A stretch of DNA of 59,647 bases, the filler included, from Dugesia japonica (lineage: Eukaryota), in NCBI GenBank assembly GCA_001938525.1. It is 6 parts of 6 records of this genome, joined end to end, with 100 filler letters (N's around TTAATTAATTAA, not from the genome) between each part and the next. Parts side by side here need not be neighbours in the genome. Positions count along the whole stretch, not along the records: positions 1 to 11,110 come from MQRL01609811.1; 5 more parts are not named here. The stretch is one strand, 5' to 3'. The stretch's first letter is position 1, and the number at the start of each line of letters is the position of its first letter. The notes under the pieces were generated by a model that did not search any database, was not told the origin of the DNA, and saw nothing but the letters and a program-made list of their open reading frames with translations. Positions 1-57,990 of this stretch are shown one piece after another. The position numbers and the translations under genes are program-made.

Positions 1-537
1 GATTTCATATTTGTTGGAAGAATAAGTAAATTTGCGTAAACGAATTTGTAAGTTTACTAATTTGATTTTATTTAAAAATAATTTCATTTCCAATCATATC
101 AAACACAGATCCATAAAAGATTTTAGAAAAAATTTTATATTTTTCTCTCTGGTAAAATGTGATGTCATTAAAAATAATTGTAAAACGGTTTTAAATGAAT
201 TAACGTTGAAAATGGGTTTTTTTTCAGACTAAAATGAAATTTAAATATTTAAGAACATTCAAAGAAACATTGTAGGGTTAAATTTAATTTGAAATTCGAG
301 AAATTATTTTTTTAATTAATGAAAAATGTTGAATTAAACCAATCAAGTATTCACCATTATAGAAAAATAATAAAGAAAATACTAATATAATATTTTTCTA
401 AAAACAATTAAACTGATAAAATATCTAGTGAAATTTTTAAACATAATAAATTCAATGAATTTTAACGTTTAAAATGAATCGTTTTTCAAAATCGTAAACT
501 TTTTATTTTTTATTTGTTATTTTAATTTATATTCATA

Positions 538-2574
538 TATTAGGGTCTCATCTGAGTTAGTGATAGAGAAAATGTGGCAGGGGGAAAAACAGTTCTCGGG
601 GATCCCTGGAAGAATTTACTTAATGTCCCCATTTAGGTTTTCAGTTTACATATGTTGACTCTCAACCCTTACTTGGAGTTTAGGCTCATACTTATTTCGC
701 TCGGGTTCAAAGTTTCCCAAATTAAACTGCTCAATATATCAACCATAAATTGGTAAGAAAATTTATTTTTTACAGACACGTTTAATTTACATAAAACCTA
801 GAGCCTTAGGATCAAGCCACTTGGCTGGCTCGTCATTCGAAAAGTCGAATGTGACCTCGTCATCATCACGGTTCCACCTGATTCATGCTTCTATCTCCAG
901 GCGGGTGGACAGGTTTGCGATGTGTCTCTTTATGAAATTGATTTTATAGTTAAGGATTTGTTTCAATCGATTCACGAGTTTGTTTTGCTTTTTATTTACG
1001 ATTTCTAATTTTTTAATGCCGGAGTAACGAACGTTCACATCATTTTGAGAAGTTTTGGATCAATTTATGGCAATGACGGAGACTGGTTGGTAAACGAATT
1101 CTCGGCACTTAAATAGAAATAAATAATTACTGATTAATCATAAACGCAAGTTAGGAGTAGTTAATTTGACAGTACAGATAAGATTTAAGAATGAAAACTT
1201 TGTTTTGACCAAACCTTTTCTTTACAACGCAGATATTATGTTGACAAATTTATGAGCGGGGAGTTTGTGTCACCTTATCAATGATCAGTAGTTTGATAGG
1301 GATCTGTCGCCGCAAGGTCATAATATCTGCCACCAGCTTGCTCTCTCTCTCGTGGAGTATATGGATCATTTCAGAGAAGGTTTCCAACTGGGCCTTCAAG
1401 GACCTCTCCTGAACATGGAAGGCTTCGGCAATGAATTTCTGATCTGGTTTTCCGCGGAGTTATTTAGTTTCTCGGTCATTTGCAGTGAGTTTCATTTCTT
1501 TAAAAGTTCGGAGAAAGAAACGGCGATTGTCTTATGGTCTCGATCTGAATTTATGGTGAGAGCAATGGTCAGGTAGGTACAATCAAATAATTTGGTTTAG
1601 TCATCACGAAACATCAAAACTAACACAAATCTTAATCAAACAATATTTATTAACCATCGTATACAACATTATTGGATAGATAATTGACAAATAAACTCAT
1701 ACTTACCCGTGATTAAGTTTCTTCAACGGGGTTTGAGAACAATGATTAATTCGGAATAAATGATTTTTTTCGTTTTGTGATAGTTAACAATTTATTTCAC
1801 ACTTCTATTCGAAAATCTGCTGATAAATAACAGAGCTATCCCAGTAATAAAGTAATTCAAAAATTGAAGGGTAATTTCAACTGAAATCAGGGGGGTTTAT
1901 ACACTTTTTTCCATACAACTCGACTTATCTCTTATTGGCGGGTATTTTTGAATTTGGTTTTCTGTTTTTCAATTGGTACCAACTTTAAAATTTTAGATTT
2001 TTCTAGGGAATTTTACCATTCCATTGGTGCCTATTTTTAGGACACTTTGTGATTTTGGTAAATTTGTTTTTGGTTTATTTGATGCCTCCATTAGCCCAAT
2101 TTTGATAGCTTTTTTCCGACTTTTTCAAAGGTATTACAATTTACTCCATTACAAATTTGGATTTCTCTTAACCGGAGCTTTCCAGTATTTTTTGTCCCAA
2201 TGATTATGGACAATCCGCTGAAAACGTATCCGTCTTCTACTGATTTTCGAAGTAATTAATTTCTTTTTTCCAGCCAAATTAATTCATTTCTTTTCGTTAT
2301 TTCCAATTATAATCTAATAATAGTTCTTCTTATTTTTGATTATAAATTATAACTTCCCTAATTATGGTTGCTTGTCATTATCTTTATTATGATCCTTTAT
2401 CATTTTCTTATTATTTCGGCATTTTTCTGATCTTCTATTAATTAATTATTTTCTTGAATAGAAATTATTATCAATTAACTGTTTGTTGGAGATTTATTTT
2501 ATTAGTTTCCTTGCTGGTCAATACTTGGACTCCTGGTTCTATTTTCTTCTATGATCGGGTGTTTCACCCCAACA
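538..2574 (-). mobile_element. Putative solo LTR (~2.0 kb) of an LTR retrotransposon
   Basis: Ends form an imperfect inverted repeat (TATTAGGGT... / ...ACCCCAACA, i.e. TG...CA with one end decayed) flanked by a 4-bp direct repeat CATA (534-537, 2575-2578). GC-richer than flanks. A related terminus TGTTGGGGTGAAA starts at 37853. Confidence 0.55.
787..1495 (-). pseudogene. Decayed two-exon coding sequence inside the putative LTR (exons ~1495-1274 and ~1107-787)
   Basis: Manual translation MKLTANDRETK*LRGKPDQKFIAEAFHVQERSLKAQLETFSEMIHILHERESKLVADIMTLRRQIPIKLLIIDK|CREFVYQPVSVIAIN*SKTSQ...LVNRLKQILNYKINFIKRHIANLSTRLEIEA*IRWNRDDDEVTFDFSNDEPAKWLDPKALGFM*. Joins in phase 0 across a GT..AG intron and has 3 in-frame stops. 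Confidence 0.4.
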
Positions 2575-2792
2575 CATATATTTTATCCTATTATTTTTTA
2601 TATTAAATTTATGATATTTTTATATTTTATTTAAGGTAGGTAAATGGTAGCAGTCAACATCAACACACAATCAGTACCCCTCAGGATTAGTGTGGTAATG
2701 AAACATAATCCTAATACATTTAGGTGGGAATTTAAAAATTGTATCAAATTAGGTAATTAAAAAGAAATAACGTCATTTAAAATAAAACTTTA

Positions 2793-3830: not shown

Positions 3831-4149
3831 TTCATGGTAAAAGTAGAATTTGTTTAAATTTTCAAGTTTTTTAAAAAAAGTTTATGGGATCTTTTATGGA
3901 ATCAAAGTGAGCAGCCTATGTTGTCTAATAATATGAACATTTTAAAATTTTTTAATTATGGGAATCCGAAACCTTCCAAAGTTTTGAAAATTTTTCGAAA
4001 AATTTTTATCGAGATTTTTAAATCAATCGATGCAGAATTCGGTGGAGATTATTTATCCCAAATAAAAAAATTTTGAAAAAATTATTTCTCATCTTTTCAT
4101 GAAATAACCATGTCTATTAAATAGAGAATTTTCCGCTGATTGAACTGTT

Positions 4150-4260
4150 ATTAAAAACCAAAAAAACAAAATTTTGATCGAAGCTTTTATTTTAAATGAA
4201 TTCTGAAAAACGATCAATGGTTACGTCTATTAATTATTTTTGCAATAATTGCAATTGTGA
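4150..4260 (+). repeat. Penelope pLTR family A 3' fragment
   Basis: AAAAACCAAAAAAACAAAATTTTGATCGAAGCTTTTATTTTAAATGAATTCTGAAAAACGATCAATGGTTACGTC...GCAATAATTGCAATTGT, also seen at ~36860, ~45300, ~48966 and ~54945. Confidence 0.7.
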
Positions 4261-5728
4261 AACAATAGTCTTTATGTTTTAAAACTTCCTTTGATATTCG
4301 ATGTAATTATCAGATAATTTTATATACAGCAAAAAAAACATCAAATTTGAAATGAAATAATAATGTCAGTGTGATATACTATTATTGAATAGTTCGAGTT
4401 TTTCATAATTAATTAATTTTCATGATTATGATTTTAAATTAGTTTATTAGATGTTTATTAAAAATTCTGTTGTTTGAATATTAAACAATCTTTTGGGAGT
4501 TTTAAAAATCTATTTTTAGTAAGTTATCTTTTAAATTTATTAAAAATAATTATCATCGTAATTATTTGATTGGATTTATTTTCAGGAACATTTAATTCTA
4601 TTTATTTAAGAACCCTTCAGTTGAATTTATTTTTTGTATTTATTTGTAACTTAAGATGTTCTATTGTTAACTATAATATTGTTGGTAATATTATTATTTT
4701 TCGATTCGGTTGTAGCTTTTATTTAAATACATGTCATCAGAAAAACAAAGCGTTATTGATAATGGGAATGTAAGCCCGCTCCCTATCAATCAGTAAAAGA
4801 ATTTTCAGCTAAAATGGCACGTTTAGTCAAATACAACTGATTTTTGTAATTAAAATTTTTAAGCTGGAAGAATTAGATAAATATATAGAAAATTATAGCA
4901 TTCAATAGATAAAATAAGATTTCAACACCCAACATAATTAAACCGTCGCACAAAAGATAAATTAAAGCATGATACAAAAATAAGACTTGATAAAAGAAAC
5001 GATTGTATAACAAATACTTATTCAGAAAATCTAATATTTATCACAATTTTCTAATCGTATCTTACGAATTTTTTTGATATTTATTTCATATATAATTATT
5101 AATTTATTATGCTGATAATACTATTGATAACTATATTGATAATAATATCAAAACTAATAAATTATAAATAAAAATATTGATAATTTTAATTCCAACAAAA
5201 AAAGTCATTGTTTATATAATGTATCAATTTAAACAAATTTAAAAGATTATTAATATTTTATTTGAGTTTCTTGATTATTAATATGATATTAATCTGTTGT
5301 TAAATTTTAAAAAATTTATAATGACAAAATCTGTCATGATAATCTATATTCAAATATTGAAACGTAATTTAATAAATTATATATTAAGACAATTATTTTG
5401 TCTTAATTTTGTTAATTTCTTTCAAACAACTATGGAAAACCATGAAATAGTTAAATATTAAAATAGCACCCAATTAATGTTAAAAAAGAAGTAATGAAAA
5501 ATACGTAGTAGTAAATGATAAGATTAATGGATAAAATAATTATAGCTATTATTGAAAAAAATAAAACATAAAATAATTAAGTAGTGTTTATAATTATTAT
5601 ATAGAATGAATTAATATACGATATAATTACACCTGGTGAATAACAAATAATTTACGGAAATAATTATATTAATTAATAATAAATGAAATTATCTTACAAA
5701 TAAAATTGATTTTAGACATTAATTTTCA

Positions 5729-5909: not shown

Positions 5910-6124
5910 GTATGATTTGAAATAGTTAAATTTTTTGATAGTTCGACCAAAGTTGTTAAAAATAAAGTTAAAAAATTTAAATATTTTAAATATTTGACCA
6001 TTAAATATTAATAATTCATTTTAAATTAATGACTTAATGAAGTAAAATAATTTTTGTGATTTAAAATGCAAAATTTGTAATAATTTTACAAAAATAAATT
6101 TTGGATTAATTTTAAAAGAAAATT

Positions 6125-6976
6125 TTAAAATTCATTTAAAATAAAATCTTCGATCAAAATTTTGTTTTTTGGTTTTTCATAACAATTCAATATTTCGACT
6201 TTTTCTTTGTCAGGAATTGACTTTTTTAAAAATTGTTTCTACTTCACATAAGATTGTTAATAACTTTGTTTATAAATCCCATACACCAATTGGTTTGTGT
6301 TCTAACCTTGTTTATCAATTTAAATGTAATGGATATTATGCCACGTATATTGGAGAAACTGCCTGTCAAGGGGTCAAGAGCATAATCGTTTTGGTGGTGG
6401 NNNNNNNNNNNNNNNNNNNNNNNATAAAAATAAAAGTAATTGCAATGCGAATGTTGAAATTTCAAATTTTAAAATTTTTTCTAAGCAATTTTAGAATTAC
6501 TGCGAGAAAGTATTGAATGAGACGTTAATGATTAGATCCAAGCAATCAAGTACAGGCAGCTCATTCTACTAAATTAATTAAAAAATTTTAGATAAAAAAA
6601 TGTTTTACTTTTTGAAAATTTTATATATTTTCATGTTTAGATAGGTTTTTAGAAGTTTTGTATTTTATTTTTCAAAATGATTTTCAATTTTATAATTTTA
6701 TAGATTTTGAAAATTTTTTATTCATTTTAAAATTAAAAATTTTAAATATTTTTGAAAAACGTTTTTTTTGTTTCTTTGATTTTTAGAGGTTTAAAATAGT
6801 AATTTTAATGAAATATTATTATAGAAAAAGTTTGTATTAGAATATAATTTATTGAAAATATTTTTTATATTAAAAAATATAAGAATTTTAAAAATTAAGA
6901 ATTATAGCCATATTATATTCAGTATAATTGCTTGAATCTTTGTTTAAATAATATAGACTGAATAAACTCATTTTTT
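6125..6976 (+). mobile_element. Penelope-like element remnant: inverted pLTR-A end, GIY-YIG fragment, family-B 3' region
   Basis: 6226-6375 encodes KIVSTSHKIVNNFVYKSHTPIGLCSNLVYQFKCNGYYATYIGETA (VY..C..YIGET GIY-YIG motif, close to ORF 42079-42771). It is preceded by an inverted hammerhead-bearing repeat. Confidence 0.75.
6183..6218 (-). ncRNA. Minimal hammerhead motif, family A (core mutated)
   Basis: Minus strand AATTC CTGACAA A GAAAAAGTC GAAA TA TT GAATT; G8>A change and broken stem II. Confidence 0.45.
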
Positions 6977-37852: not shown

Positions 37853-38185
37853 TGTTGGGGTGAAATATCTGGTACGTAGAATAAAAATGGCGATAGATAA
37901 AGCCCAAAGTGAAAAGATAGTCACCAAATGAGGAAACAATGAATCCAGACAAAGGAAAGTCAAAGTTCATTGAAAGAAAGAAATAATTAAAGGAAAACCA
38001 GGAGTGGTAGTTAAAACCAAGGTAATAATCGGCAAAATCTAAATTTACAGCAAGAAACAACTCAGAAATAAGAAAGCCAAAAAGAAGAAAAGGAGTAATA
38101 GAAGTTATCAGACAGATAAAGAAAATAATGAATAACAATTAGTTCATTAGGCAAAACTAAGAAAATCATATTGAACTAATAATTG
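37853..38185 (+). mobile_element. 5' end of an LTR related to 538-2574, truncated by the scaffold end
   Basis: Starts TGTTGGGGTGAAA, identical to the reverse complement of 2562-2574; also shares AACCAGGAGT and CAGCAAG blocks. Confidence 0.45.
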
Positions 38186-42078: not shown

Positions 42079-42810
42079 TCAATAAAATAATGTTAAGAGC
42101 AATATTGAATTCGTCAACTGAACATTAATTTTAGGATTTAATGTCCTTATCAGCAAAGCTTCACACATCAATCTCTCCAAATAATTATTAAATCCACTGC
42201 ACAAGTTTTTAAAATCAGAAAACCCCATTGAATTTATACATTTTCTTCCATGCTCAACAATGTTACTATTTCCACTATTTTGATTATGCTCTTGTATTCT
42301 GGTACAGAGATGAAGGGAAGTCTCTCCAAAGTATGTAGTGTTACACTCATTACATTTAAATTGATAGACTAGATCAGAGCACAAGCCTAAAAAGGTTCTA
42401 GATTTATTATTGAACATATTTATAACCTTATGAGATTGAGATACAACCTTAATATTTAAAATATTCTTAAGAGCATTTTCAATTGAAAGTTTGAATTTTT
42501 TAAAGCCTTCAGAATAGAGTAAAGATAAAATAATTTTATGATCTGTTTCTACAACCTCACATACATCAAAACGAGACAAGTCACTATTTAGTTTATTNAA
42601 AGTTTCATAAACTAATTTGTCCGGAAACAATGTAGAATACCCATTATTATGAAGTAAGTTAATTAATTTATTTAGACTCTTGTCTGCTTTGATAAAAGTA
42701 AAAGTCAGAGACCAAGAACGATGAATTAGTCCTTTAATTATATTACTTTTATATTTTATGTCACAAAACATGCAGGATTTGTAAACAAACTGGTATCAGT
42801 ATTTTAAAAA
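42079..42810 (-). mobile_element. Penelope-like element 3' part (RT thumb plus GIY-YIG endonuclease), 230-aa ORF
   Basis: KYKSNIIKGLIHR, NNGY, LVYQFKCNECNTTYFGETSLHLCTRIQEH, EALLIRTLNPKINVQ. Confidence 0.9.
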
Positions 42811-42819
42811 GCTGTGATG

Positions 42820-44430
42820 TCAAGAGATCATGACCTCATCAGATACGTATAACAATCGACAAAATACTTTGTTTATTCAAAGGAAGATGTCCATTCAAAG
42901 TTTTCATGAAAGATAACCTAGTAAATATGGTATTTTAATGCATGCGCTAGTCGATTCTTCGATAGAACCCTATGCTGGTAAAGGCGAAATATCAAATAAA
43001 GTATTAAATGCAGTAAGCAGATTAGTTGATCCGATTAAGAGTAGATGAAGAAATGTTACAATGGATAGGTATTATACATATACTAATGTTGCGAATAAGC
43101 TTTGTCATGAATGTATGCTAACAGTTGTTAGTACGATTCAAAAAGCGAAAAAATATTCTTGCTACACTAAAAGAAAAATCCTAGAACTTTATTCATCTTT
43201 ATCTGCCTTTTCTGCTACAACATTAACTACTGTCCTAATAACATTAGTTTTTTATTGCACTAAACCTAAGAAATAAGTGTTATTTCTATCAACTCAACAT
43301 CGAGCTATTGGTTTATTCGAAAGAGAAAAGAAGAAACCTGAAATAAATATCTTTTATAACGAAACAAAAATGGATTTTATACAATCGATCAAATGGTAAG
43401 AATTTATTCAGCAAGAAGTGGTACACATCAGTTGCCTTTATCTTTATTATATACTTTATTAGATATTGTACAGATAAATGCTTTTACATTATATATTGAA
43501 TGCTTTCATGATTGGAATAAAATCAAAAATCATCGATTATAACTTCTTATTCACGGACTTGTATTCAATCTTGTCAAAAAACAAGTGTCAAGAAGACATA
43601 CAATTGGTTTACAAAGTGACATTTTACTAAGTATCAAAGCTGTATCATCTAAAAGAAGTTTTCAACAACTTTTATGTCAACTCCACAATTAATTGCAACA
43701 TATATTAAGGCATTATAAATTAATTTACCGAAATGTGATATTTGAGTATCAACTAACTCAAATCTCACGCGAAAGATATAATATTTGTTTTGAAGCCGCT
43801 ATATGTAAAAAGGATAATCAGAAAGTCAGAGGAATAGATTCAAAATGCAACAATAGTAAAGAATTTATTAGTAGGGGGATAGTGGCGCACGGTCACAACA
43901 TGCATGGCACTGGGCGGAACCCCCCCCCCGCCTTAAGATTGTGACCGTTTTTTTGGTGACCGTTTTTTTTGGGTTGGTTTTTTTTTTCTAAGATTTTTGG
44001 GATCAANNNNNNNNNNNNNNNNNNNNNNNNNNNNNNNNNNNNNNNNNNNNNNNNNNTTATGTCAACTCCACAATTAATTGCAACATATATTAAGGCATTA
44101 TAAATTAATTTACCGAAATGTGATATTTGAATATCAACTAACTCAAATCTCACGCGAAAGATATAATATTTGTTTTGAAGCCGCTATATGTAAAAAGGAT
44201 AAACAGAAAGTCAGAGGAATAGATTCAAAATGCAACAATAGTAAAGAATTTATTTGTTCAATAAATAGCAAGAAAGAAATATTATACACAAATTGTATTG
44301 ATAAAAATATATCCTTTCAATGAAAATTATTTATTTGTTTTATATTAGTAAATATACCATGAAAATCAACTGTTACAATAGATATTGCTGCGAAGTGAAC
44401 TTTTTAAGTATTTTAGCAGCTAACGGCTAG
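42820..44430 (+). mobile_element. Decayed piggyBac element
   Basis: GRCPFKVFM..PSKYGI, EPYAGK, RNVTMDRYYT, VLFLSTQH, KPEINIFYNETK..DQM, INAF, and a decayed Cys-rich C-terminus (ORF 44078-44323). Confidence 0.85.
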
Positions 44431-44950: not shown

Positions 44951-45239
44951 CGATATTATTTATTAAAAATTAGCATAAAACTGATTACAGAATTTCTTTT
45001 TTAAAACAACAATGTAAGCTGTGGACATTTTTGTCCATGCTTAGACATCCTAGGAAGAGTTTTTTCTTAATCATCGTAGGGTTAAAATAATTTCCTTTAG
45101 TATATTTGTTTATGGTACTTATCGTTTATTTAATGAGATCCTTATATTACAAGTGCAGTTTGCACTGGTGTGGAAATTTATGTTTTCAGCCAAGATCTAA
45201 TAACAACTAATTTTCTTTAAAAATTGATTAAACAAATTA

Positions 45240-45400
45240 CATTAAAATAAGATAAAGCTTCGATCAAAACAAAATTTATTTGAACTTTTTTACAAATAAA
45301 TTTTGTTTTGATCGAAGCTTTATCTTATTTTAATGAAATCTCAAATCCAATCAATGGTTAAGTCCAACAATTATTCTCACAATAATTGTAATTATAAAAC
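45240..45400. repeat. pLTR-A-derived fold-back repeat (perfect 43-bp inverted repeat, 10-nt loop)
   Basis: 45240-45282 is the exact reverse complement of 45293-45335 and is followed by the family A tail. Confidence 0.85.
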
Positions 45401-45660
45401 AAATTACGGTATTATTTAGACTAGCCAACATTGTAAATACTTTATTATACTCTCAGGAAACAACTGTATTAAATAAATATTTCAGAAATATAAAAAAAAT
45501 TTCTCAGTTAAGATTTTTTATAGGTTTACTTTCAATTCTAATCATTTTTCTATGCTTGAATTCGTTATGGAAAAAAATTCAGAAGAATTTATCAAAATAA
45601 TAAATTAGTTTCAACATGAATTGAAGTAATGTAATTATAGGAAATTAAATAAGATCTTAC

Positions 45661-48859: not shown

Positions 48860-49080
48860 TTATTAAGATGAAAGCTTCGATAAAAATTTGTTTTTTGGTT
48901 TATCAATATATTATTATCAATATATTATTATCAANNNNNNNNNNNNNNNNNNNNNNNNNNNNNNNATTATTATCAAAAACCAAAAAACAAATTTTGATGG
49001 AAGCTTTTATTGTAAATGAATTCTGAAAAACGATCAATGGTTACATCCAACAATTATTCTCGCAATAATTGCAATTGTAT
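48860..49080. repeat. pLTR-A head-to-head inverted module
   Basis: AAAGCTTCGATAAAAATTTGTTTTTTGG (inverted) followed by CCAAAAAACAAATTTTGATGGAAGCTTT...GCAATAATTGCAATTGT (direct). Confidence 0.7.
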
Positions 49081-49167
49081 ATCAATTTCAAATTCATCAA
49101 ATTTGTTATCATCTGCAAAATCATGAAAACTATTTCCATTCAAATTTTAGTGAAAAATATAGATTTG

Positions 49168-54944: not shown

Positions 54945-55015
54945 TTTAATGAAATCTCAAATACGATCAATAGTTAAGTCCAACAATTATTCTCGTAATA
55001 ATTGTAATTGTAAAA
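54945..55015 (+). repeat. pLTR-A 3' fragment
   Basis: TTTAATGAAATCTCAAATACGATCAATAGTTAAGTCCAACAATTATTCTCGTAATAATTGTAATTGT. Confidence 0.7.
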
Positions 55016-55317
55016 CTAATAATTAAAGTTTAACTTCTTTTTTTCATCAAAATTTATCATATAATAAAAGATAAAATACTAGATTTACAGAATCACAAAT
55101 TTAACGTTTTTTCAAATTCCGTATTTACACGCACACAACGCGTAAAAAATAAAATATTTAAAAATGAAAAATTTCAAAATGGTATTTGTTTAACGCACAC
55201 ATGATTTATACTGCACAAAATTTATAAGCACTTTATTGAACAAATTTTTACATGCTGATATTTTAAAGAGCCAGTAGTTTCATATCCATTTTTAAATGAT
55301 GAATTATTAAACTCATT

Positions 55318-57990
55318 TGTAACGTTCTTAAATTTTGTATTAAGGGTGAAGATATACTCAAGCTTAAGAAAACGAATTCTTACCACTATTTTGCGGTCCA
55401 GACTCCCTCGGAAATGTTTGAAAAATCTTTTAAGGATCTTGAGAAAATAATCATCTCGGTTCTTTATCTCTAGATGAAGATTCACGCCTATATTATTCCT
55501 ACCCAATTCACATTTGCCTTTAGGAATTACAACATTATTCTAGGCAAATTTCGATGCTGCGGTCATTCAGAGAATGGAATCCGTACCTGTCTTATGCAGA
55601 TCCTTTGCGTTTTATATCTAGTTCCAGTAAACTTGGGGGTTCGGTATCATATCAGCGAGAGACAAATACTTTGTGCANNNNNNNNNNNNNNNNNNNNNNN
55701 NNNNNNNNNNNNNNNNNNNNNNNNNNNTCGGAAATGTTTGAAAAATCTTTTAAGGACCTTGAGAAAATAATCATCTCGGTTCTTTATCCCTAGATGAAGA
55801 TTCACGCCTATATTATTCCTACCCAATTCACATTTGCCTTTAGGAATTACAACATTGTTCTAGGCAAATTTCGATGCTGCGGTCATTCAGGGAATGGAAT
55901 CCGTACCTGTCTTATGCAGATCTTTTGCGTTTTATATCTAGTTCCAGTAAACTTGGGGGTTCGGTATCATATCAGCGAGAGACAAATACTTTGTGCAGTC
56001 TCTCGTGCAAGTATTCATGATCCTTATTAGCAAGAAAAACGCTATCCTCATCAAACATTTATTTAAGACATAGTTACTATGAATTGAAAAACTGAATTAG
56101 AAAAGTTTTAATATTCAAACAAATATGCGCAATATTTATTTTAGTTATTTTCTTGAAATATTTAAAATTTCCAAAATTTTATAAATATTTTAATTGCGCA
56201 TATAAATTTNAATTTAAGCAATTCAAATATCATTCTCACATCCCCCTTCTTTAAGAAATCTTCTGATCTTTTCAGCATTTCTTTCCATTGTCCTATCCAG
56301 ATAATTTCGAACCAGATATCTTCGGTCATGTATCATTTTTACTACTAAGAATGGATCTACAAAACGATCCTGATCCTTATTTTTTGTTTCCTCCTTGATA
56401 AGCATCTCCAATTCTGCATCTACAATAGCGAATGTTCTCCTGGTTGGGTATCTAACCTTCGGTATATTGTCTACCTTCTCGAACTCTAGTTTTCTATGTA
56501 GAAACCATCTTTCTCTGCTGATTTTTCTACCAAACACTGTTTCCGCCGGGCTTTTATCTGTTGTTTTCTGTACTGCCGCATTCATCACAAATNCAATCTC
56601 TGGAAGAATTTCTACCCAATTCTTTGCGTTTCTATCTGCTAATGATGCTCCAATCCAGTCTGTGATAGTTCGAAATTGCCTTTCTACCTGTCCATTCGTA
56701 TTATGATGATACAGACTTGAAAAACATAGCTTAATATTCATCTTCTGACTCCTCTTCTAGCTCTACTTGATAGTAAGCATTACCTAAATATAATGAGCTG
56801 ATGAATTTTGATCTGCCTAATCTATCCAGAATCTTCTCTGCATTTGGCATTGAAAATGCTTACCTTTCCGTAATAGCGTTCAGCTGTCGAAAATACAGAC
56901 AGAGACGAATGTATTTCTCTTCTTTTTTCCAGATACATAACAACGGTGTGTTCCATGTTGAATTGCACTTTCGTATAATTCTATTTTCAAAAAGATTACG
57001 TATCCCTTCGTTTATTTTATCCTCTAGGTGTTCTTTATGGCTTAATATTTATAGGTTCTCCTTTTGTTAATATTTTATGCTTCACCAGTTTTGTGCATTA
57101 TATGTCCCATTTAACTACCATAAAGATATTTGAATGTTTTCTTATCAACTCCTTGATCGTGCCATTTTCCAATCTCACTCAAAGCTTTTTGACANNNNNN
57201 NNNNNNNNNNNNNNNNNNNNNNNNNNNNNNNNNNNNNNNNNNNNNNNNNNNNNNNNNNNNNNNNNNNNNNNNNNNNNNNNNNNNNNNNNNNNNNNNNNNN
57301 NNNNNNNNNNNNNNNNNNNNNNNNNNNNNNNNNNNNNNNNNNNNNNNNNNNNNNNNNNNNNNNNNNNNNNNNNNNNNNNNNNNNNNNNNNNNNNNNNNNN
57401 NNNNNNNNNNNNNACATTAATTCTTGCTCCGGTATCCATTAAGCATTCCAACTCCATGTTTTGGATCTTTATCGCAATACCTGGTCTACCCTGCTTATAT
57501 CTTATTTCTCCATTCTTCTACTGTTGCGATAGTTGGTTCCACTGATGTTTCTACCTTGATTACTTATATCTCTTTCTTTAAAAAATTATAAACGCGTTCT
57601 TTGATATCATCCTCTATATTATTGATATGACTACTTTTACTATAACTATCAATATTTTTGGGATCACCCATTAGATTTTGAGTTCTACAACTCCTACCAT
57701 CTTCCCTTTTGGTGGAACTTTTCCGTTTGGGTTTCTCATTGATCCATATACGTTTGCGTCACATCTGTTGTTACCATATCTAACGTTACCATATCATATT
57801 CCTTGTTACTTGTTTAATCATCTTCCACTGCATTGATGTTAACATACCTAACCGAAAATGGGAGCTTTTTTACCTCATTTTTCTTATATTCTGAAGGATA
57901 TTCGTTCCATCTCTTGTGCTCCATCTTTGTAAAACAATNTTTGGCTATATGACCGTTCTTTTTGCATTTTTGTGTCTATATGGTGGTGTG
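55318..57990 (-). mobile_element. Internally deleted Ty3/Gypsy element with PPT and probable 3' LTR
   Basis: Minus strand: gag knuckle CKKNGHIAK.C (~57950), protease CLMDTGA (~57440), RT N-terminus STWNTPLLCIWKK..IRLCLYFRQLN..GNAYYQVEL, integrase YHHNTNGQVER..SPAETVFGR. PPT AAAGAAGGGGGA abuts TG at 56240. The LTR far end (~55318) is tentative. Confidence 0.85.

Follow-up and report, generated by a model that had tools for sequence, protein, structure and literature searches.

The element at positions 538–2574 of the window (the whole stretch of 59,647 nucleotides from Dugesia japonica analysed here) is best explained as an internally deleted and decayed solo LTR of a Burro-like Ty3/gypsy element, whose complete relatives would use four sense ORFs as alternative last exons on one non-coding leader, with the start codon split by the splice junction as A/UG (a slash marks a junction throughout). 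We put the probability of this reading as a whole at about three in four. LTRs are commonly taken as non-coding control elements, and sense introns in them are expected to be purged; in the family described below, introns appear to persist in the LTR, together with poly(A) signals and four ORFs under selection, across lineages with saturated synonymous sites.

The copy in the window

Table 1. Features of the window copy and of a related terminus, in window positions.
Feature	Position	Strand	Remark
Target-site duplication, left (CATA)	534..537		Matched copy at 2575-2578
Target-site duplication, right (CATA)	2575..2578		Matched copy at 534-537
Solo LTR, internally deleted, 2037 bp	538..2574	- (= sense)	PPT at 2574-type end, PBS at 538-type end
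U3-like promoter region (boundary predicted)	1875..2574	-	Alignable across lineages, ~61-67%
CCAAT box (1938-1934) and TATA box (1901-1896)	1896..1938	-	Both recurrent in 37 aligned promoter regions
Non-coding leader exon (start predicted)	1707..1875	-	Variant of family motif CCGTTGCAGA at 1730-1719
Family splice donor GTAAGT	1701..1706	-	Motif and donor pattern common to the family
Subfamily-specific sequence 3' of donor	1430..1700	-	Ends at internal deletion, ~1430-1435
ORF C, 3' half, own stop 1252-1250	1250..1429	-	Resembles an open natural copy (its residues 60-118) at 68%
ORF D acceptor, conserved AG/TG	1108..1125	-	AGTG there in 75/86 distinct copies
ORF D remnant	787..1107	-	Frame changes between 1017 and 1001; stops in frame; natural stop 789-787
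AATAAA 3' of ORF D, candidate end of R	762..767	-	D-copy poly(A) signal statistics
Related LTR 5' end	37853..38185	+	Sits in TAA repeat, cut by the end of its part of the stretch

An earlier note on this DNA had recognised the solo LTR and its CATA duplication correctly (Table 1). Read on the minus strand, the copy starts with TGTTGGGGT (2574) and finishes with ACCCTAATA (538); the TG..CA-type ends then proposed do lie at these two positions, with the reservation that the 538 end, which is the 3' end of the copy, is a decayed ...AACA and now reads TA. Three further signals read from the single copy, namely the TATAAA near 1900, the donor at 1706 and the acceptor at 1108 (TTTAAG/TG, 1108/1107), are all present and all recur in the family, and the window promoter region is 61% like the LTR that stands behind pol and a PPT in L252. 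At the last leader base (1707), the window copy deviates from the family.

Complete four-ORF relatives of this LTR measure 3105-4633 bp, as against 2037 bp for the window copy. The window copy aligns with its relative L142 up to ~1435, from where L142 goes on into ORFs A and B, whereas homology of the window to the family ORF C begins at 1429, in mid-C; the deletion has therefore taken out A and B together with the first half of C. The block 1544-1430 resembles L142 only. In the ORF D remnant, the family frame runs over 1105-1001 and then over 1017-790 in a different frame. Compared with 15 open copies, the 3' half of ORF C in the window copy gives pS of 0.69-0.95 and pN of 0.24-0.39. The copy is most likely dead, a relic.

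The same comparison bears on the earlier proposal of a single gene of three exons, joined at 1707/1544 and 1274/1107 and coding for ~180 residues, which we now consider very improbable. The frames do join arithmetically in the window copy, into 74 + 105 residues broken by one TAA and two TGA, and a TTCAG does lie at 1549-1545 as claimed. However, the 1545 acceptor is absent in L142, the sole relative aligning there, and the frame is not that of the family: the first 22 residues of the supposed second exon have no homology to the family protein, and the first 30 of the supposed third exon are in the wrong frame; only one of the three stops falls in the conserved frame. The donor proposed at 1274 fails likewise, since, of 94 distinct copies, 10 have a GT next to the equivalent codon, whereas 91 reach a stop within 30 codons, most often after 7, and the D acceptor is of phase 1, not phase 0. 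The two TGA codons had been suggested to derive from CGA; the G+C content of the window is 22-30% and CpG observed/expected is 0.78-1.17 in six stretches, without depletion, which leaves that origin unsupported. The apparent gene of 180 codons thus results from the internal deletion and the frame break. What stands of the claim of an intron-containing gene in the LTR is the selected coding sequence, as remains of the separate ORFs C and D rather than of one gene.

The family and its internal region

The genome searched comprises 854 Mb in 648,594 contigs. A DNA search with the element gave 46 matches among 40 scored candidates; with two peptides, all of the best 150 of ~8,000 candidates each matched; and the exact 3'-end pattern occurs 3,118 times in the genome. 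The terminus at 37853 is 87% alike over 333 nt to the PPT-linked L244 and 60% alike to the window element, in agreement with the earlier view that it is a related end within a large family. Seven complete solo copies, 1,853 to 4,633 bp in length, carry a 4-bp duplication that is perfect in five and has a single mismatch in two; L308 was left out of this count because it is a PBS-linked LTR with a mis-called end.

Of 96 rows compared, more than 80 (judged by eye) have a PPT-like purine-rich flank immediately 5' of the 2574-type end, and one row has it at the opposite, 538-type end. Conversely, a PBS-like 18-mer starting with TGG, possibly of tRNA-Pro type, follows the 538-type end in 7 of 100 among the flanks listed and forms 102 exact LTR-end junctions genome-wide. 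Because this PBS stands 7 nt behind the LTR end, a search for a shared TGG within 0-4 nt of either end, which found none in 30 + 30 flanks, missed it. The window contains no tRNA gene. The PPT was observed ~5 nt before the LTR start; spacers of 7 nt (LTR to PBS) and ~5 nt (PPT to LTR) are longer than in most gypsy elements. Among the 100 3' flanks listed, at least 20 show TAA-type microsatellites by eye, which suggests a target preference of the family for such repeats.

The internal region was met piecewise: among the 648,594 contigs, none was seen with both LTRs and the entire internal region. L317 holds, on one contig, ORF C, ORF D, the LTR end, the PBS, gag, RNase H and integrase; L311 and L312 hold C, D, the PBS, a gag with CCHC knuckles and a fusion glycoprotein domain; and L252 holds protease, dUTPase, RT, RNase H, integrase zinc finger, BIR, PPT and LTR start. 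The pol of L317 is 77% identical to that of L252 over 263 residues and 95% identical to that of L253, which also has a RING finger, and the Ty3/gypsy domain order (protease, RT, RNase H, integrase) is found in L252 and L317. Among the Pfam matches, zf-CCHC lies above the cut-off in L311 (two stretches); the env-like PF24664 has an E value of 2.5e-19 behind gag in L311, where the frames are broken and the protease lies off that contig, and BIR (PF00653) one of 9e-17 just before the PPT in L252; the dUTPase (PF00692) between protease and RT in L252 is at the cut-off (E 7e-5), and Retrotrans_gag falls under the curated cut-off (E 0.001-0.009).

With PBS, gag, fusion domain and pol on one side and the PPT on the other, the genes of the LTR are in the sense orientation, as the earlier note had it, and it is virtually certain that the family of 538-2574 is an LTR. 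That the element is instead a complete DNA transposon, bounded by TG..CA and flanked by a 4-bp duplication, as the short inverted ends and the mostly unique flanks might suggest, is refuted by the PBS, the PPT and the gag-pol linkage at both ends, and we give it practically no weight. On its domain content, the LTR family belongs to a Burro-like and presumably large Ty3/gypsy element. Burro and GYPSM1 are giant gypsy-like LTR retrotransposons of Dugesiidae, above 30 kb in total length and with paired LTRs, and the section of PMC6431247 that describes them names a Gag that carries CCHC knuckles and is followed by a viral fusion-protein domain, a dUTPase placed between protease and RT, BIR and RING finger domains, LTR copies by the thousand and a decayed state, all shared with the present family. 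The MATH, BCL2-like, SUMO-like and ankyrin domains described there for Burro gave no Pfam match in 19 internal-region fragments, which cover the internal region in part, and the same section does not name LTR-internal ORFs, introns or split start codons.

Several arrangements were noted in passing. The commonest PPT-linked subfamily (L249, L250, L251, L255, L261, L262 and L266), of which the 37853 terminus is a member by its likeness to L244, has zinc-knuckle frames directly 5' of the PPT; L249 also has a protease before the PPT, no RT was seen in this subfamily, and it is possibly a non-autonomous derivative. In L259, two four-ORF cassettes, 60-81% alike, follow one another in the same orientation and are separated by a PPT-like tract, and ORF B is present twice in L260, L307 and L309.

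Four open reading frames in complete LTRs

Complete LTRs carry four ORFs in the order A, B, C and D, of ~61, ~90-117, ~118 and ~119-126 codons, respectively. Mean pS is 0.79-0.85 against a mean pN of 0.26-0.34 across the four, after exclusion of copies whose tails were frameshifted or chimeric (2 of 17 for A, 3 of 13 for B), and copies differ at 61-64% of third codon positions and at 21-31% of second positions. Median dN/dS is 0.23 for A (16 of 105 pairs unsaturated), 0.19 for B (9 of 45), 0.14 for C (13 of 105) and 0.10 for D (5 of 78). The ratio is below 1 in all 43 unsaturated, usable pairs (out of 333, the rest being saturated at synonymous sites), in values biased downward by the choice of open copies by protein similarity. 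It is thus very probable that these ORFs inside the LTR are coding, and the substitution pattern indicates that A-D are under purifying selection, bearing out the earlier expectation of a family with selected coding sequence (dN/dS below 1).

In most copies, a T-rich tract and an AG precede each ORF. ORF C begins with AG/TG in 47 of 61 copies, and ORF D does so at the frequency given in Table 1; in both, the conserved frame begins right after the TG. In ORF A, the AG is followed within a few bases by an ATG belonging to the ORF itself, and among 39 copies of ORF B, 11 have AGTG and 15 their own ATG (AATG or TATG). A, C and D each have a stop of their own, and a poly(A) signal stands no more than 60 nt behind it in 21 of 29, 69 of 91 and 82 of 108 copies, respectively, as compared with 17%, 14% and 27% in the shuffle control; for B, whose copy ends are ragged, the signal is present in 3 of 13 open copies. 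No fifth conserved ORF was detected between the donor and A, the 18 donor regions having no common translation.

The leader and the split start codon

The TATA box and the leader donor lie ~190-340 nt apart, in sequence that is unalignable between lineages, and 18 family leaders together contain 10 ATG triplets against 78.6 expected. The motif CCGTTGCAGA combined with the donor pattern gave 835 matches versus 6 in the control. Among the matches listed, the base before the donor GT is A in 99 of 100 (counted by eye), whereas G is the usual last exon base before GT. We further observed that CCGTTGCAGA is invariant, 6-28 nt before the donor, in leaders that are otherwise unalignable. CCGTTGCAG was tried as the acceptor of a second leader intron and rejected: upstream donors occur in 4 of 18 leaders, with 4.5 expected.

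As the leader ends in A and ORFs C and D begin behind AG with TG, splicing of the one to the other would build A/UG, and the alternation of ORF B between AGTG and its own ATG is what a split codon predicts. We therefore consider it probable, from these sequence patterns, that the ORFs serve as alternative last exons and that the start codon is split by the junction.

Two other partners for the acceptors have to be weighed. The ORFs may mainly be last exons of full-length subgenomic RNAs, in which a donor in the internal region is joined to acceptors in the 3' LTR to yield fusion proteins, so that solo LTRs would give little product. An internal acceptor and donor are indeed conserved in PBS-linked contigs. 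That donor, however, ends in G (CTG/GTAAGT), and no long frame was seen upstream of it; the LTR leader itself has a TATA box, an A-ending donor and a shortage of ATG, and ORF A and many B copies have an ATG of their own, all of which make this arrangement unlikely. Regarding the internal sites themselves, the acceptor was observed ~270-370 nt and the donor ~540-700 nt behind the LTR end in PBS-linked contigs, flanking an exon of short tandem repeats in L291, L292, L296, L297, L311 and L315, where the two sites stand at about +300 and about +560, and the internal leader behind the PBS also seems to be spliced. A gag start behind an AG/TG acceptor was not found in three contigs, in all of which gag has its own ATG.

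Alternatively, the acceptors may receive the flatworm spliced leader in trans rather than the LTR donor. The layout is operon-like, with an acceptor for each ORF and a poly(A) signal for most, and in a tapeworm an LTR donor and the spliced leader share an acceptor, according to the portion of PMC4558846 concerned. A strong cis donor with its near-invariant last base nevertheless lies upstream of the ORFs in the present family. A spliced leader ending in a whole AUG, moreover, would shift C and D out of frame, their conserved frame being preceded by TG. We regard trans-splicing at these acceptors as distinctly improbable and retain the leader of the LTR as their partner.

Four raw RNA runs (~47 million reads) were compared with positions 1025-2000 at 80% likeness and yielded one partial read, which fell in the promoter region at less than 90% likeness, and no read across a joint; three of these runs amount to no test. 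Since the relatives are mostly 70-88% alike, expressed lineages could escape such mapping.

The encoded proteins

Protein searches with alignments of A, C and D gave no match at E <= 0.001. ORF B has one unnamed homologue of 94 residues, encoded by an ENA contig of 512 nt and beginning with Met where the start was predicted; two further matches of B were repeat proteins and were dropped as artefacts. In Pfam, nothing exceeded the cut-off for A-D and only coiled-coil-type matches lay below it, and no profile similarity was found between C and D or between A and D. Predicted folds comprise a single long helix at 18-101 for C (pTM 0.44) and a long helix at 27-92 for D (pTM 0.38), both uninformative at these scores; D gave no viral fold match at E <= 0.001. 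The first halves of C and D are rich in Arg and Lys, which would fit nuclear or RNA-binding regulators. That these small basic or coiled-coil proteins are trans-acting regulators of the element's own RNA is the likeliest role, but a tentative suggestion that we hold to be somewhat doubtful; no relative of A-D with known function was found, so their role is a guess.

Proposed mechanism and comparison with known systems

In the predicted course of expression, the LTR promoter would fire and transcription would start ~25-30 nt behind the TATA box, which would place the whole cassette in R/U5. The leader would then be spliced to the acceptor of A, B, C or D, the chosen ORF becoming the last exon and the message ending at that ORF's own poly(A) signal. 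Translation would start at the ATG present in A and in about a third of the B copies, and at the ATG formed by the junction in C, D and the other B copies. Unspliced RNA would run on to the PBS and serve as genome RNA with its introns kept; if it ends at the signal of D, R would be ~3 kb and U5 ~200 nt. In complex retroviruses, the packaged genome RNA is the unspliced form, and introns would outlast reverse transcription here if the packaged RNA is likewise unspliced. The split AUG would block production of C and D from unspliced RNA, and the A-D proteins may help the unspliced genome to evade splicing or host silencing.

Complex retroviruses also have LTR-overlapping accessory genes, such as MMTV sag, HIV nef and foamy virus bel; these are located in U3, on the upstream side of the promoter, and it is the 3' LTR from which they are expressed. 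The resemblance consists in small accessory proteins, spliced RNAs and coding sequence partly or wholly in the LTR; unlike those genes, the four ORFs of the present family lie downstream of the TATA box and have their own poly(A) signals, so that a solo LTR would hold the entire unit. It is plausible that a complete solo LTR would leave behind a working transcription unit. We see nearly an even chance that a flatworm Ty3/gypsy element with an envelope-like gene has independently evolved the layout of complex retroviruses, its promoter, single A-ending leader and four alternative coding last exons all lying in an LTR of 3-4.6 kb, in which case thousands of solo LTRs would be self-contained regulator cassettes with C and D silent on genomic RNA.

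A precedent for the start codon is the env gene of errantiviruses of the springer subclade, completed by splicing as AU/G, as given in the part of bioRxiv 10.1101/2023.08.03.551782 concerned; these too are Ty3/gypsy elements with an envelope gene, but there the split codon (AU/G) serves one internal gene, whereas in the present family it would be A/UG and serve several alternative ORFs in the LTR. The ta-TRIM solo LTRs of taeniid cestodes, also from flatworms, are flanked by 4-bp duplications and act as starting points of spliced transcripts; the pertinent part of PMC4558846 describes non-coding RNAs or host-gene fusions as their products, and no conserved LTR-coded proteins. No report of several spliced genes arrayed within the LTR of a retrotransposon was found in the literature surveyed, to which the Burro paper of 2018 with its supplements and the Repbase entry, which may bear on novelty, are external, and such an array goes unmentioned in the relevant parts of PMC13524379, PMC11410931 and PMC13238120.

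If confirmed by RNA, the family would represent a retroelement that keeps a multi-gene spliced unit in R/U5 and, by splitting the start codon, makes translation depend on splicing; if true, solo-LTR formation would disperse protein-coding units besides promoters. The four new small proteins would also be candidates for the way in which Burro-like elements handle PIWI silencing, which is described for planarians in the part of PMC8532177 concerned.

Other sequences in the window and the genome

A dispersed repeat of 90-120 bp, some copies of which fold back, occurs at 4139-4266, 6123-6226, 36850-37107, 37714-37814, 45236-45404, 48966-49088 and 54945-55024. Decayed frames with a YIGET-like motif, a motif known from Penelope-like endonucleases, lie at 6145-6513, 37300-37560 and 42082-42795, and an integrase-like fragment of a different retroelement was recognised by eye at 56226-56756 on the minus strand. 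Direct duplications of 200-270 bp (98%) flank N gaps at 43672/44057, 54243/54558 and 55408/55728 and are probably scaffolding artefacts. Elsewhere in the genome, in L313, a truncated element end stands ~1.3 kb before two long host-like frames, presumably of an importin.
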